Shown here piece by piece: positions 8,337-25,517 of a stretch of 64,000 nt of DNA; position 1 is the stretch's first letter, and each line of letters begins with the position of its first letter. A program made the translations under genes and the position numbers. Source of the DNA: a virus. The stretch lies in the IMG/VR virus record IMGVR_UViG_3300017917_003852, positions 1-64,000 of that record; one strand, given 5' to 3'. The notes beneath the pieces were generated by a model. That model ran no database searches, was not told the origin of the DNA, and worked only from the letters and a program-made list of their open reading frames with translations.

Positions 8337-8681
8337 TTATCTTTGTGCCCTGCAATTAGGACAAATTACCATTAAATTTGTTTCTTCGTTGTTATGTGTA
8401 TTGTTATCTCTATGGTCAATTACTAGTGGTATATCTTTACCAGCATGATCATCACGCCCGCATATTTCACAATGTGCGCCACGATGTTCAATTAAGTATC
8501 TTCGTACATAATCAGGCACCTGTCGCCATGCAGTGGTAGATTGGTTTTCCTTCCACTCATTTACCAACAATCTACTTTTATGTTGTTGTTGGCAATGATT
8601 ATTACAATATTTGTTTGTGTAACTATGCCCTTTAACAGGATTTACACGCCCACAATTTAAACAAGTAAAACAAGAGTTCAT
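8337..8681 (-). CDS. HNH endonuclease (zinc-binding)
   Basis: CEICG...DHRDNN..NN...NL..ICPNC. Confidence 0.8.
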   Translation of the reverse strand: MNSCFTCLNCGRVNPVKGHSYTNKYCNNHCQQQHKSRLLVNEWKENQSTTAWRQVPDYVRRYLIEHRGAHCEICGRDDHAGKDIPLVIDHRDNNTHNNEETNLMVICPNCRAQR

Positions 8682-8780: not shown

Positions 8781-9350
8781 TTACTCTTCGTCGTCTTCTT
8801 CGTAATCGTCGTAGTCGTCGTCTCTGTAAATATACTCTTTGGTATCATAATCCTGATAGTAAGCTTCATTTGGTGCTAAAATTCTAAATGAATTAGCAAA
8901 CCTTAAAGTTATCACCATAAGTTCTTTTTCATCGCGGATATCACAAATAGCCCAACGACTTCCGCAACTACCAATTACATCTTTGATCTTACTATGCTCG
9001 TACTCACCTGCTTTAAGGGCTCGGAATAAATCGCTACCTTGACTGAAAATAATACGGCCAGCACGTCGTTCGGGATGTTTAAGCCACGCATCAGTAATAC
9101 CCAACTTTGAAATTGTGGCATTATTGTCCGGATCAATTGTTAACTTACATTTTTTAAATTTGATACTACCCTTGGTCTTTTCATTACCCGGGGTTTCCTT
9201 GGTGCTCCAAGGCATATCTGAGGTTACGTGATTAACGTAAAAAGTGACACCATGTGCTTTTACAACCCACATAGGAATGGTTGGATCTGTTAAATGACCT
9301 TTGTTAAAGTGAAACACTAGGTCCTTACATGCATATTCAATCTATTTCAT
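8781..9350 (-). CDS. hypothetical protein with an in-frame TAG at codon 3 (amber read-through candidate)
   Basis: AAGGAAAATAAAA-ATG AAA TAG ATT GAA TAT GCA TGT AAG GAC CTA GTG TTT, in frame with the tracked ORF 8781..9317. Confidence 0.65.
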
Positions 9351-9376
9351 TTTTATTTTCCTTAAAATTTTATTTA

Positions 9377-9613
9377 TTAGTTCTCATCGAAGTTAGTAAC
9401 AATAAATTCTTTACTTGGTTTAAATTTAGCAGGAGCCTTTACTTTACTATCAAAAGTAATATGATATCCAGCAAATTTTTCACCTTCATATTTAACTCTA
9501 ATATCTGATACCTGACGACCAGTTTGTCGCTCAATCGCTGCCACAACTATATGATTAACGGTATTTGCACCAATGGTAGCAGTCATTTCAATATCAATAT
9601 CAAACTTATTCAT
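9377..9613 (-). CDS. hypothetical protein
   Basis: AAAGGA RBS directly after the tRNA CCA. Confidence 0.7.
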   Translation of the reverse strand: MNKFDIDIEMTATIGANTVNHIVVAAIERQTGRQVSDIRVKYEGEKFAGYHITFDSKVKAPAKFKPSKEFIVTNFDEN

Positions 9614-9624
9614 AATAATCCTTT

Positions 9625-9700
9625 TGGTGCGCTAGGTGGGAATCGAACCCACGCATCTGGAGTTTTAGAGGCTCCTGCTGTTCCATTTAGCTACTAGCGC
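9625..9700 (-). tRNA. tRNA with CUA anticodon (amber suppressor)
   Basis: GCGCTAG/CTAGCGC acceptor, A73, encoded CCA, GTGGG-TTCGATT-CCCAC T arm, anticodon arm GGAGC-CTCTAAA-ACTCC (C31-A39 mismatch). Confidence 0.85.
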
Positions 9701-9753
9701 ATGATACGAGAAAGGCAGCATTGCGCTGCCTTTATTACTCAGCTAGACTAGAA

Positions 9754-14671: not shown

Positions 14672-15035
14672 TAAAAAACAGGGCCCAAAAGCCCTGTTAC
14701 TATTTTGGGTAATAAGGCATAGTTGCCCCAGAGGTTATGCTGCTAGAGCAAAAACCTCGTCATTAGCTGCGTTTGCAGTTATAGTTTTGCTTCTTTTACG
14801 GAGATCGCCTACCGTGTTGTCCATATCCTTACTCATTGCCCTGTCGAAACCATGTCAGCCCCGGCAAAAGCATACTGGCAGTTACACATACTTTCTTTTA
14901 ACTTTCGGTCCTATCCGTACCATTGCTGGCCTCTTGATTTAAACGGTCTATGAAAGTACCAATATACTTTTGGTGGAGCTGGCGGGAGTCGAACCCGCGT
15001 CCAGAACACCTTTCATTCAACTTCATACAACAATA
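14672..15035 (-). ncRNA. ssrA: circularly permuted (two-piece) tmRNA
   Basis: 3' tRNA-like half GGACGCGGGTTCGACTCCCGCCAGCTCCACCA (ends 14971) precedes 5' half GGGGCTGAC..TTCGAC (starts 14862); tag ANAANDEVFALAA-TAA at 14776-14735; promoter 15042-15070; terminator near 14672-14697. Confidence 0.9.
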
Positions 15036-15074
15036 GCTTATATTATATACTTATTTACAACCAGAGTCAATTAA

Positions 15075-15671
15075 TTAGACAGGATCAGTAAAAACAAGCT
15101 CGTTACCGCGCATCATTACGTTCCCTTCGCCTAGATCATTAACTCCGGGCCCGTGGTTAATTAACTCAATAATATTCCATACGGCAACAAGAACTCCGCG
15201 ATGAGCGCGAGCATATTCAAAGAAAGCAGGATAAGAAGTTTTTAATTTGGAAAAACGTAACTGCATGCCACGGAAGGTTTGTGGCGGCTGTTCTGTGTCG
15301 ATTGTACATTCGTCGATAAAATAACCAGCTTCGGTAACTACACGCTCAGCAGGACCAGATAATTCAGCTAGTTTTTCTAAGCGTACTGCTACAACACCAG
15401 GAACCACCGGTACAAGTTGGCGGCTTATGATACGTGGGAAACTAGGGTTATTTTGATTTGCAAAGCAGACACTTAACCAAGCGCGATATGAACTGTCATT
15501 CGCATTGAATGTCTTCAAAACATAATCTAATTTTGGATGAGCCCATACTGTAGCGAAAGATCCCGACCCTAGCGGACTAAATCCTTGATCGGTTAATACT
15601 GTTTTATAATCGTTAGCGGCTAGTGTTTGCTTAACGCCAACTAATTCTGTTAGTATTTCTTGTATGAGCAT
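15075..15671 (-). CDS. protein-kinase-like fold protein with M-x-x-x-E-I-L-T-E N-terminus
   Basis: LGSGSFATVW, VLK, NDLGEGNVMMR, DP; TAAATA motif upstream. Confidence 0.65.
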   Translation of the reverse strand: MLIQEILTELVGVKQTLAANDYKTVLTDQGFSPLGSGSFATVWAHPKLDYVLKTFNANDSSYRAWLSVCFANQNNPSFPRIISRQLVPVVPGVVAVRLEKLAELSGPAERVVTEAGYFIDECTIDTEQPPQTFRGMQLRFSKLKTSYPAFFEYARAHRGVLVAVWNIIELINHGPGVNDLGEGNVMMRGNELVFTDPV

Positions 15672-20228: not shown

Positions 20229-20627
20229 CTAAACATACAACCCTAATTTACGCAACTCTACTACAAAAGCAGGACGCAAATGGGGCTCTACTTCTAGCAC
20301 ATCTTTGCCGCCCATGTCTAATCGATCGGCAATATCTTTGGCTTCTTTAAGACCAAGGCGCCTACGGTCGTGCGCCCGTATGCATTTAATAACTGCAACT
20401 TTGTTTTGGATAGGGTTTAAGAAAGGATTCTTTACATGGACCTTATCAGTTTGGTACTTACCAGTTAGCATGGCCATAAACACTTCGCCTTTAAGATCAG
20501 GATCAATGGTATCCGCAATAGCAGTCCAAAGTTCCTGACCTTTTTCTGGCCCGTAGATCTCAGCAACGGTTTGCATGTATGCAATGCTAGCGTCAATGAG
20601 CTCTTCCTTGTGTTTTTCTGGTATCAT
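20229..20627 (-). CDS. protein with ribosomal L7/L12 C-terminal-like domain
   Basis: KVAVIKCIR...LGLKEAKD. Confidence 0.6.
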   Translation of the reverse strand: MIPEKHKEELIDASIAYMQTVAEIYGPEKGQELWTAIADTIDPDLKGEVFMAMLTGKYQTDKVHVKNPFLNPIQNKVAVIKCIRAHDRRRLGLKEAKDIADRLDMGGKDVLEVEPHLRPAFVVELRKLGLYV

Positions 20628-21273: not shown

Positions 21274-21681
21274 TTATATACTCACCTCAAATTTAAAATC
21301 GTCAGGGTCATCCACAAGTTGTGATTCCTTAACCTCAGTCCAACGACCATCTATCCTAATTTCTAATTTAATCTTTGTTAGTTCGTTAGCCACAGCACGA
21401 TCAATTTGATCCATCATTCCTGTTTTTTTGAGGACTTCAAGTCGGTGCCATTTTTTGAACGTTTCCGTTTCACACATTTTGACAAAGGCGTCTCGTTTGT
21501 TTTCCAATTGGTTACGACTAGCTTCACTATAACCTCTGGCCCCTGAGGCCCTGTGCCGACAATGAACTGCGCTGCTAGTCTTATTTCGCTTCTGCCCACC
21601 TGCACCGGTTCCTTTGGTGTATGACCAATCACAGTCGTCCTTTGTTACGCTAAACAATAATTGTCTTTTACCGTTTTCCAT
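21274..21681 (-). CDS. class I release-factor GGQ-domain protein (ArfB/PrfH-like peptidyl-tRNA hydrolase)
   Basis: GTGAGGQKRNKTSSAV...H..SG...SRNQLENK; too short to hold stop-codon recognition domains. Confidence 0.85.
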   Translation of the reverse strand: MENGKRQLLFSVTKDDCDWSYTKGTGAGGQKRNKTSSAVHCRHRASGARGYSEASRNQLENKRDAFVKMCETETFKKWHRLEVLKKTGMMDQIDRAVANELTKIKLEIRIDGRWTEVKESQLVDDPDDFKFEVSI

Positions 21682-22565
21682 TATACCCACCTTAATGCAA
21701 ACTCAATTGCATCACGCTCGTTAATAAACTGCCACACAACTTGATAGTCGAACTGATCACAGAAATTTCGGTTAATAATACGATCACGCCACCCACACCG
21801 ACTGGCTTTTACGCCATGCTTTTCTTTTAACCAGTCCCACATTTCTACATAATGGTACCAATCTCGTGCAATGGTTGCGATACTGTACCGCCACAGTTTT
21901 CGATCTCGTCTTCGTTGTCGGCTGTTCATGCCCACCTCAATAAAAATGAGGTTAAATCTTGTTCAGTCTTATACACAATACCAGTGGCATAAACTTCGTA
22001 GTTGCCATTTTCATCGCACCAATCTTGCATTGGATCAATTTGAGCCCAGGAGAGCCAGTCATTAAATCCAATATGGTTATAGCGACGATCAATAGTAAAT
22101 TTACTCATGCCCATCTCAATGCAAACATTGTAGCATCATCTTGATTTTTGAACAACCACGAAGACTTACCAAACGCGGTAATTAACGCCCATTGTTTGTC
22201 TTTGTTTGAAGTATATAATCCACCTTCGCCCAATTGCCTGACACACCAAACTATCATATCCTCAACTTCATGATAGCGATCTCGTTCAAAATGTACCTGA
22301 AATGGATGCGTATGATCAACGCTCATTACGCCCACTTTAATTGGAATAATACAGCATCTTGTTCGTGTTTAAAATACCATTCGGTTTGTTCCTTTGGGCC
22401 ATCCAAAAATCCTAGTATATCAATACCTAGCTTGTACCATGCTTCGCCAAAAGGGCCTATGTTTTCTTCGCACCACTCCTGTGCCAATGGCCACTCTGGA
22501 TTGTTAATTATGATGTGGTACCGCCACTCTGGATCCATCATGTCTGTTTTTTTAACAAGTCCCAA
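21681..22565 (-). repeat. array 1 of small F-x-L-R/K-W-terminated paralogous CDSs (4 genes)
   Basis: ORFs ending at 21681, 21926, 22105, 22326 finish EFALRWV, SFLLRWA, MFALRWA, LFQLKWA. Confidence 0.8.
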
Positions 22566-24248: not shown

Positions 24249-24614
24249 TTATGCAACATGAAAGATAGGATATACTGCATCACTGCCAGGCATGCCGTTC
24301 CATACGGTGCGTACAATAAGAATTTTATGTTGTTCGTGTAGCAGTTGCACGCCTAGTGCTATATGATTGGTATTGTCATACAACCAAAAGTGCTGTCCTG
24401 CACCTAGTAGGCGTATTTTGGCTTTGGCTCGAGGAATTTTTGGAATAACTTCTTGAATTACAAAATCATCAACTTTGCGTTCGTGTGCTTGATCTAGTAA
24501 ATGTTCGTCCAAGAATAAGGTATAGTCGCCAACATCTAGCCTCCCCACTACTTCAGGTCTGCGGCTAAAATATCTTACGGCTGTTTGTTTATTATCAAAT
24601 TCATGAGAACGCAT
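24249..24614 (-). CDS. MRxxEF-tagged protein, possible RelE/DUF4258-like ribonuclease fold
   Basis: MRSHEF start; H..DQAHER and C-terminal IVRTVW. Confidence 0.4.
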   Translation of the reverse strand: MRSHEFDNKQTAVRYFSRRPEVVGRLDVGDYTLFLDEHLLDQAHERKVDDFVIQEVIPKIPRAKAKIRLLGAGQHFWLYDNTNHIALGVQLLHEQHKILIVRTVWNGMPGSDAVYPIFHVA

Positions 24615-24617
24615 CAA

Positions 24618-25517
24618 CTATTTAGTTTTGTATTCTTCAAGAATTTGTTCAAGATCTTCTTGAGTTACTGTAGGAAAAACAATGTTGTAGAAATGCCATA
24701 TTTTTTTTAGAAAAATTTTGTTAAACCCATGATGAAATTCTGTATCGTATGAATTAATTAAAATATTATTTTTCTTTTCTGTATCTTTAACTAATTTGTC
24801 CAGTAGCAATTTAAAATTCTGTTCTTCAAATTTTAACCTACGTAATGCATGCATTATAAAAGATGTTCGAAAATGTAAAACATCTAATTCATTGATTTTA
24901 GCTTTTTTTATAAAATTAGTGAAATGTGCTAGATGCTTAGATTCTTCTTTAATAAATTCTTTAAAAATTTGTTTTTTAATTGGATTTTTAGTATATCTAT
25001 AAAACGACATAAATGAAGTAATCAAATAACTTTCCCCAGTTACTATGTCAGCTAGAAAACCAAATAAAGTTCCGCGATCCCAATTGCTAAGTTCCGACCT
25101 AACAAGTTCTTGACAGGTTGGATTATAATAGTCAGGTTGATAATTACCGGGCTTTTCTTCCATTTTGTCAATGATAGCCCCAAATAATTCTCGGTGCCGT
25201 AATTCGTCGCTAATAATTACTTCAAAATTTTCTTTAAAAGATTGTAAGTCGGTAGGAGATAAGTGCTTATAATAATGATCTAACTCTCCGTTGTTTAATC
25301 TTTCTAAAATAGAATCATAAAAAATCGAAGCAGTACTTTCTCCATTAAAACAAAAAATTAACCAACTATTGTAACATGATTTCTCGAATAGTTTTGAGAC
25401 AGTTGCTGAACTGAGACTATTAATCCCAGGAAATAAGTTCTCATGTAATTCAAAAGGATCTTCGGCAGGAAACTCGCATTGATCTATTAGACCAAAAACA
25501 CATTCAGTATTAGACAT
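24618..25517 (-). CDS. ferritin-like di-iron protein
   Basis: paired DELRH and EESKH (ExxH) motifs. Confidence 0.65.
   Translation of the reverse strand: MSNTECVFGLIDQCEFPAEDPFELHENLFPGINSLSSATVSKLFEKSCYNSWLIFCFNGESTASIFYDSILERLNNGELDHYYKHLSPTDLQSFKENFEVIISDELRHRELFGAIIDKMEEKPGNYQPDYYNPTCQELVRSELSNWDRGTLFGFLADIVTGESYLITSFMSFYRYTKNPIKKQIFKEFIKEESKHLAHFTNFIKKAKINELDVLHFRTSFIMHALRRLKFEEQNFKLLLDKLVKDTEKKNNILINSYDTEFHHGFNKIFLKKIWHFYNIVFPTVTQEDLEQILEEYKTK

Follow-up and report, generated by a model that had tools for sequence, protein, structure and literature searches.

Code-15 phages (crAss-like, Lak and others) encode suppressor tRNAs and read TAG as Gln (bioRxiv 10.1101/2021.08.26.457843). In their genomes, dozens to hundreds of mostly late genes contain scattered TAG codons, TAG is depleted as a terminator and the coding density under code 11 is low. 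A CUA tRNA is also encoded by the Xanthomonas phage XacN1, a jumbo phage with the standard code for which 18 TAG stops were read through in silico and no target was found (PMC5852040). Here we describe a locus within 64,000 nucleotides of viral DNA (positions 1 to 64,000 of the IMG/VR record IMGVR_UViG_3300017917_003852), a stretch referred to as the window. The locus contains a tRNA gene with the anticodon CUA, hereafter tRNA(CUA), and near it a gene on the same strand that carries an in-frame TAG as its third codon and encodes a protein with the motif VFHFNK. Our comparative analysis suggests that the phage tRNA decodes this UAG in competition with release factor 1 (RF1) of the host and that the output of the gene tracks suppressor activity.

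As in the code-15 phages, for which in-frame stops have been proposed to act as regulators of translation, a phage tRNA(CUA) would thereby override UAG in a standard-code host. In contrast to them, the TAG is found at one fixed codon of one gene beside the tRNA, TAG serves as a normal terminator and this state is stable over deep divergence. The phage resembles XacN1 in being a large standard-code phage with a CUA tRNA, but the target proposed here is an early in-frame TAG, masked by the downstream start that gene callers choose, and not a C-terminal extension. The arrangement is also reminiscent of prfB, the gene of RF2 with its early in-frame UGA, and of infC, whose AUU start senses IF3, in that an early, conserved and seemingly defective signal would report on a competing translation factor. 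Like prfB, the gene at our locus does carry a conserved in-frame stop near its start; in prfB, however, a +1 frameshift is required and the factor sensed is the gene product itself, whereas read-through would be in frame here and the species sensed would be the tRNA against RF1.

Pyrrolysine (Pyl) and selenocysteine (Sec) genes likewise combine a dedicated tRNA with a position-conserved in-frame stop in particular genes, while the same codon terminates elsewhere. Unlike in these systems, dedicated enzymes for charging or biosynthesis are lacking (no PylS in the phage contig or in three complete relatives), the leader is unstructured and lacks a downstream RNA element, and the site is located in a variable leader and not in an active site. 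The bar minigenes of phage lambda are two-codon open reading frames (ORFs) that cause peptidyl-tRNA drop-off and are toxic when peptidyl-tRNA hydrolase (Pth) is limiting. Our locus shares with them a two- or three-codon ORF with a stop right after a strong Shine-Dalgarno (SD) sequence and, in relatives, a link to peptidyl-tRNA hydrolase. While bar minigenes are free-standing, the mini-ORF described here shares its frame with a conserved protein and invariably ends with UAG. A literature search retrieved no description of gene-specific amber gating beside a phage suppressor tRNA.

Conservation of the in-frame TAG and translation beyond it

A preliminary description of the window, made from the letters alone, had pointed to an SD-led ATG-AAA-TAG in frame with the ORF downstream, and this arrangement is present in the DNA (Table 1). 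For comparison, 371 homologues of the read-through protein were collected, 160 loci were fetched from viral and metagenome contigs, and the DNA preceding the invariant VFHFNK motif was read at each locus. The resulting non-redundant set comprises 123 homologous loci with 50-86% protein identity, the window and one cultured phage among them. The first in-frame stop encountered upstream is TAG in 120 of these 123 loci and TAA or TGA in none, although TAA is the main stop of these AT-rich genomes. The TAG is located exactly nine codons before Val (Val12 in the window) in 113 of the 120 TAG loci, and the base 3' of it is A in 119 of them. According to E. coli genetics, an A after the stop favours amber suppression.

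The signals for initiation are also retained. In the relatives, an in-frame ATG lies 1-9 codons upstream of the TAG within a leader of variable sequence, and an SD-like motif is found 4-18 nt before this ATG in 116 of 119 cases, irrespective of leader length. Initiation at the codon that follows the TAG can be dismissed, since ATT, ATC and ATA are used there in close relatives (100, 14 and 3 loci, respectively) and Lys, Thr, Asn, Val or Gln is encoded in distant ones; this codon is selected as a residue or as a context base.

We further surveyed 1.48 Mb of de-replicated related DNA for an SD, an ATG, zero to eight codons and a stop that has 100 or more open codons behind it, with TAA and TGA serving as internal controls. 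The pattern was found 125 times with TAG, three times with TAA and once with TGA, and 115 of the 125 TAG cases represent this gene. Since the TAG is kept in more than 100 loci, a sequencing error is implausible, and a recent nonsense mutation or a pseudogene can be excluded. Among 240 loci, the sole pairing of stop and anticodon observed is TAG with CUA. Taken together, a site that is TAG-only and fixed over deep divergence (∼50% identity, and in other phage lineages too) indicates that the codon is selected as UAG.

Past the TAG, the minus strand reads ATT GAA TAT GCA TGT AAG GAC CTA and then GTG. The entropies at codon positions 1, 2 and 3 are 0.53, 0.33 and 0.94 in these eight codons and 0.11, 0.10 and 0.95 in the following eight, as compared to 1.35, 1.53 and 1.51 in the upstream leader. 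The N-terminal stretch IEYACKDL, singled out in the preliminary description, is conserved among 109 homologous sequences (Ile in 109, Tyr in 104, Cys in 107), while synonymous positions vary freely (TAT/TAC 71/33, AAG/AAA 56/40, GAC/GAT 56/45). This combination of coding periodicity and conserved residues with synonymous change shows that the eight codons after the TAG are translated. In the AlphaFold2 models, residues 4-16 form one continuous beta-strand, half of which is contributed by the residues following the TAG. The RNA around the TAG is less structured than its shuffles (z = +2.4), and no stimulatory structure was detected in it; because the local RNA is so unusually unstructured, no SECIS- or PYLIS-like element is involved.

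The CUA tRNA: linkage, structure and identity

The complete CUA tRNA announced in the preliminary description was recovered both by ARAGORN and with the Rfam tRNA model. It possesses an encoded CCA end, the acceptor pairs G1-C72, C2-G71 and G3-C70, the discriminator base A73 and the anticodon loop CUCUAAA, and it has a C31.A39 mismatch in the anticodon stem. The label "Pyl" that ARAGORN attaches to it derives solely from the anticodon.

The linkage between tRNA and TAG was determined from ARAGORN calls together with tRNAs recovered by our own covariance model (R1). Of the 86 non-redundant loci for which 1.5 kb or more of upstream sequence is available, 84 have a CUA tRNA, as do 69 of the 70 with 3.5 kb or more, which establishes the co-occurrence across related phages that the preliminary description had named as a check. 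The tRNA is invariably on the strand of the gene, upstream in 90 cases and downstream in three, at a median distance of ∼400 nt. In the complete relative G006, it stands solitary beside the TAG gene, ∼120 kb away from an array of 33 tRNAs.

In total, 70 unique CUA tRNAs were gathered from the loci, and 41 sequences were used for a family alignment. The cloverleaf is 92.8% paired in this alignment and compensatory changes are found in 17 of its 21 pairs; none of 500 shuffles was as good, and slid controls were 33-42% paired. On these comparative grounds, the family represents a real, conserved tRNA. The pairs G1-C72 and C2-G71, A73 and the encoded CCA are invariant, as is the loop, which reads YU-CUA-AA in all 70 unique sequences. 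The anticodon loop has 7 nt with U33, C34-U35-A36 and a purine at 37 (invariant T32, C33, T34 and A36 by sequence position). A shifted register, in which the anticodon would be UCU and AGA would be read, had been considered at the outset and is countered by this loop.

A sub-family of the CUA tRNAs shows an altered elbow, with a T-loop GTTTGA instead of GTTCGA and a D loop with CGA instead of GG (L017, L019, L020, L027, L032, L010, L084, L102 and others). These tRNAs escape ARAGORN, whereas R1 recovers them with 68-78 bits. Surveys with ARAGORN or tRNAscan will accordingly under-count phage suppressor tRNAs.

Synthetases of the PylS (TIGR02367), class Ic (Gln/Glu) and class IIb (Lys/Asp/Asn) types were found neither in the ∼20%-complete contig to which the window belongs nor in three complete relatives, and a synthetase of the host would therefore have to charge tRNA(CUA). 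According to the rules established in E. coli, a class-I tRNA with A73 and U35 is likeliest to be charged with Lys or Gln, and by this analogy Lys or Gln would be the likeliest residue inserted at the UAG. Assignment of the tRNA identity by similarity was also tried and discarded: those with anticodon CAU (Met/Ile2-type) come closest among the canonical phage tRNAs and tRNA-Gln ranks near the bottom, but scores this low do not allow an amino acid to be assigned.

The comparison of homologues that the preliminary description had foreseen for the residue at the TAG is misleading. Proteins that begin with MKQIEY in the databases do have Q at this position, but their DNA contains TAG, which gene callers on short contigs had translated under code 15; such a Q is consequently no evidence for Gln. 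Homologues that are free of TAG have Ala, Thr or Asn at the site or start later. Both the Q versions (P0006, P0014, P0058, P0077, P0090, P0097, P0099 and P0119) and other entries that are cut short at Val12 or Met27 are artefacts caused by the in-frame TAG.

A probable gene-specific gate and its alternatives

We assign a probability of about 0.78 to the reading that the locus is a gene-specific gate, in which the phage tRNA(CUA) would decode the UAG at codon 3 against RF1 of the host and protein output would follow the activity of the suppressor. A gene-specific dependence on the phage amber suppressor had been proposed in the preliminary description and is strongly supported by the TAG-only site, the translated codons behind it, the SD that tracks the ATG and the tRNA on the same strand. 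The ribosome would initiate at the SD-led AUG, read one sense codon and meet the UAG. If RF1 wins, Met-Lys alone would be released; if the charged tRNA(CUA) wins, the remaining 186 codons would be read, and the residues I-E-Y-x-C-K-D-L would complete the first beta-strand of the N-terminal domain. The amount of full-length protein would then depend on how much active suppressor tRNA there is relative to RF1, while UAG elsewhere in the genome would act as an ordinary stop. We infer all three elements of this scheme, namely tRNA(CUA) as the decoder, its charging by a host synthetase and the role as a gate or sensor.

Several observations weigh against such a gate. TAG ends 12-13% of the genes in the contig and in G006, and if suppression were efficient, many proteins of the phage and of the host would be lengthened. 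The pair 31:39 of the anticodon stem is not of the Watson-Crick type (C.A or A.C; alignment columns 34/42) in 32 of the 41 aligned tRNAs, including that of the window. In the relatives L030 and L119-L123, the TAG is present but no CUA tRNA was found within 10 kb. Moreover, a short isoform may be made independently of the suppressor from GTG-Val12, given the enrichment of GTG at this codon and the AAGGA in front of it (see below). Since roughly every eighth gene still terminates with TAG, suppression is likely to be weak or tightly limited, which agrees better with a sensor or governor than with a change of code.

A more far-reaching version of the gate, which we put forward tentatively and regard as rather improbable, would make the cassette a homeostat of suppression. 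The gated proteins, namely the VFHFNK protein and, in other phages, the PTH2-like hydrolase fused or adjacent to it, would target the suppressor tRNA, either as such or in its aminoacyl or peptidyl state. In a loop like that of prfB, stronger suppression would then raise the level of a factor that restrains (or enhances) it. If this were true, a standard-code phage could run controlled low-level amber read-through, and the transfer-messenger RNA (tmRNA) and the GGQ-only rescue factor in the same genome would be explained as well; together with the PTH2 link, these two make the idea an attractive one.

An unlikely alternative to the gate is a two-isoform switch, in which the full-length protein made by read-through is accompanied by a shorter one initiated at GTG-Val12, and the tRNA sets their ratio rather than turning the gene on or off. 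Val12 is encoded by GTG in 71% of relatives, compared to 3-11% at other conserved Val positions; the motif AAGGA, contained in the Lys-Asp codons AAG-GAC, just precedes it, and gene callers choose this start. On the other hand, GTC, GTT or GTA is used in 29% of relatives, and no canonical start precedes Met27 in 30 of 118. Since single-codon dominance is equally strong at other positions (GTC 79% at Val+17), the enrichment of GTG may be due to shared ancestry, and initiation at Val12 would remove half of the beta-strand 4-16. The GTG start that the preliminary description had set beside the ATG may give rise to a short second isoform, while a role as the sole start is ruled out, because the codons between the TAG and Val12 evolve as coding sequence.

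We consider it improbable that Met-Lys-stop is merely an upstream ORF with a true UAG stop, followed by reinitiation at the ATT or at GTG-Val12, and that tRNA(CUA) serves a different purpose. It is known that short start-stop leaders can modulate translation, ATT is a rare bacterial start codon, and Val12 is enriched in GTG as described. A plain stop should, however, drift among TAA, TAG and TGA, but TAG is found in 120 of 120 loci; the codon after the stop varies, the eight codons before the GTG display coding periodicity and the SD follows the position of the ATG and not that of the ATT. The near-obligate CUA tRNA on the same strand would also be left without explanation.

The preliminary description had judged that the genome is not globally recoded, yet had left room for an early stage of stop-codon reassignment. 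CUA tRNAs are a hallmark of TAG-recoded phages, relatives that combine the standard code with suppressor tRNAs have been suggested to be transitional forms (bioRxiv 10.1101/2021.08.26.457843), and with ∼20% of the genome in hand our gene could be just the first seen of many. The features of code 15, i.e., many in-frame TAG codons, a low code-11 density and avoidance of TAG as a terminator, are nonetheless absent from both the contig and G006. A crude set of non-overlapping genes called with code 11 covers 94% of the contig, and TAG terminates 17 of these 142 genes, in agreement with the first part of that judgement. Among stops flanked on both sides by at least 100 open codons in the 1.48 Mb, TAG is not enriched (19/323, compared to 63/1302 for TAA and 18/699 for TGA). 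The complete genome of G006 (374,314 bp), whose focal protein is 84% identical to that of the window, has 76 of 577 long frames ending in TAG, and the focal gene is its only clear case of an SD, an ATG, a short leader and a TAG ahead of a long ORF; a second match to the pattern has an in-frame ATG soon after the TAG and resembles an ordinary start. The TAG is fixed in position, conserved down to ∼50% identity and not scattered, and other in-frame TAG codons are not accumulating, which contradicts an early reassignment. We therefore regard a genome-wide or incipient change to code 15 as very improbable.

A non-canonical, pyrrolysine-like residue at a functionally special site is hardly credible: the ARAGORN label and the conserved position of the UAG, as in Pyl or Sec genes, recall such a system, but, in addition to the lack of a PylS C-terminal domain in the contig and the three complete relatives, the tRNA has a variable loop of 5-6 nt, an anticodon stem of five positions (with the 31:39 mismatch) and a standard D arm instead of the 3-nt variable loop, 6-bp anticodon stem and short D loop of the compact tRNA-Pyl, the TAG-free homologues carry Ala, Thr or Asn or start later, and the TAG itself falls within the variable N-terminal leader.

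The cassette, its protein and the genomic setting

The features of the cassette are compiled in Table 1. A scan for sigma-70 promoters and terminators across the cassette gave no signal above background, and the hairpin upstream of the tRNA, recognized by eye, may mark the boundary of a transcription unit. The 78-codon ORF between the tRNA and the TAG gene had no match in Pfam or PHROG.

Table 1. Features of the tRNA(CUA) cassette in the window
Feature	Positions	Strand	Evidence
GC-rich hairpin and then a T-run, located past the stop of the preceding helix-turn-helix gene and 13 nt upstream of the tRNA	9714-9730	-	By eye, weak; terminator scan silent
tRNA, anticodon CUA (amber suppressor type)	9625-9700	-	ARAGORN (76 nt); Rfam tRNA, 59.4 bits
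78-codon ORF between the tRNA and the TAG gene	9377-9613	-	ORF list
SD sequence AAGGAAA, 6-nt spacer to the ATG	9357-9363	-	Sequence
Two-codon leader ATG AAA (Met-Lys), ATG at 9350-9348	9345-9350	-	Sequence
In-frame TAG, codon 3, next base A (TAG-ATT)	9342-9344	-	Sequence
Read-through coding sequence, 189 codons plus TAA (8783-8781)	8781-9350	-	Frame open beyond the TAG
All-beta VFHFNK domain, N-terminal, residues 4-85	9096-9341	-	AlphaFold2
GTG (Val12), start picked by standard-code gene callers, possible secondary internal start	9315-9317	-	ORF list
Ferredoxin-like domain (beta-alpha-beta-beta-alpha-beta; ACT/RRM-type), C-terminal, residues 94-175	8826-9071	-	VIA-align
Acidic C-terminal tail of low confidence (pLDDT, the predicted local distance difference test, <50 for residues 179-189)	8784-8825	-	AlphaFold2

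The focal protein itself matches no family in Pfam or PHROG, including the PTH2 profile (PF01981). AlphaFold2 modelled the whole read-through protein with a mean pLDDT of 81 and the N-terminal domain alone with 92.5. No match to the N-terminal domain was found in the PDB (best Z 3.4), and a Foldseek search of the PDB with the whole protein gave nothing at E ≤ 1e-3 apart from weak RRM rows above this threshold, while the ESM Atlas returned low-recognition AsmA/TamB-like rows alone. The C-terminal domain gave a best Z of 5.5 in VIA-align with many ACT and RRM rows, i.e., a match to the generic ferredoxin-like fold. A profile search with the N-terminal domain yielded 145 clusters at 50% identity, in which four architectures are seen, with the domain at the N-terminus, at the C-terminus, as a protein of its own or fused to PTH2. 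The VFHFNK domain is the conserved core that accompanies CUA tRNAs.

The leader is also found on other genes. Where the focal gene lacks the TAG (L112/L025, L143 and L144), the adjacent upstream gene bears an SD-ATG-x-TAG-AT[T/A] leader; it encodes a small PTH2-like protein, with matches to Pfam PF01981 (E 0.0015-0.024) that remain below the cut-off. In distant lineages, the domain constitutes a stand-alone protein of ∼85 aa, and about half of these genes are TAG-locked; in those without the TAG, the adjacent PTH2-like gene is locked instead (MT-TAG-INNQKLRVVTRRDL...). A CUA tRNA occurs within 4 kb in 64 of 80 distant loci, and an anticodon UUA or UCA in none. These findings suggest that the leader is a portable device that moves between genes. 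A natural fusion of the N-terminal domain to a bona fide PTH2 domain was identified in P0181 (32 bits, above the Pfam cut-off), whereas PTH2 is absent from the clade of the window phage. Because of this fusion and the neighbourhood links, the protein points to tRNA or translation biology.

In two loci (L112:9238-9345 and L143:2573-2680), the TAG-locked PTH2-like gene is preceded by a second in-frame copy of ATG-TTR-TAG-ATT, and a hairpin with a T-run lies between this copy and the SD of the real leader. Such a double leader could attenuate transcription by sensing amber suppression at two points.

The cultured phage of our set is Rhizobium phage RHph_I1_18 (MN988519.1; L161:3977-4225), a phage of R. 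phaseoli that contains an unannotated 82-codon ORF (MSEFM-TAG-NESCREVIFHFNK...) with the TAG at codon 6. This ORF ends 12 nt before an annotated "tRNA-Pyl(cta)", and the gap in the annotation is a consequence of the in-frame TAG.

The window belongs to a viral contig of 78,424 bp with an estimated completeness of ∼20%, a G+C content of 38% and most genes on the minus strand. Since the contigs of close relatives measure 230-374 kb and have been rated as complete, it represents a fragment of a jumbo phage, and genes of the large-phage type are found on the contig, among them those for an HNH endonuclease, a DNA ligase, a DNA methylase, AhpC and a WYL_2 protein. Directly 3' of the TAG gene lies an HNH homing-endonuclease-like gene (8337-8681, minus strand; PHROG HNH families, E down to 3e-11), which fits a location of the tRNA-gene cassette in a mobile or variable region. 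At 24249-25517 on the minus strand, a 299-codon ORF ends in TAG and the same frame runs into a 122-codon ORF (...EEYKTK-stop-LMRSHEF...). With an active suppressor, this TAG-split pair would yield a fusion protein; we discarded it (24249-24617 and 24618-25517) as a case of read-through, as an ATG follows two codons past the stop and the junction is probably an ordinary one.

The same contig encodes a two-piece tmRNA and a protein with a GGQ-type RF-1 domain alone. The permuted tmRNA (14674-15084, minus strand) was detected with the Rfam models beta_tmRNA (144.8 bits) and tmRNA_permuted (149.3 bits), and its tag peptide reads ANAANDEVFALAA according to ARAGORN. A tmRNA in the phage suggests a betaproteobacterial host and an investment in ribosome rescue, which may be connected with stop-codon suppression. 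The 138-aa GGQ protein (21274-21690, minus strand; Pfam PF00472, 43.6 bits, with weak matches to ArfB and PrfH) looks like a codon-independent ribosome-rescue factor or a peptidyl-tRNA hydrolase. A homologue of it is present in G006 but not in the complete relatives G007 and G008, and the neighbouring ORF (20229-20627) has a sub-threshold match to the C-terminal domain of L7/L12.

For phage annotation, our results imply that ORFs are truncated or missing and that a spurious Q has entered the protein databases. The suppressor tRNAs of standard-code phages have been a puzzle, and at this locus the probable target has been hidden by the choice of a downstream start or by a switch to code 15 on short contigs. 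The module is directly testable in the cultured phage RHph_I1_18, and its compact natural pairs of suppressor tRNA and leader would be of interest for synthetic biology. The findings would also bear on how stop-codon reassignment starts or is restrained and, through PTH2-like hydrolases, tmRNA and the GGQ rescue factor, on the conflict between phage and host that centres on tRNA and translation. If confirmed, the locus would represent a natural, tRNA-operated translational gate of a single codon that recurs in many lineages of large phages and in at least two gene families.

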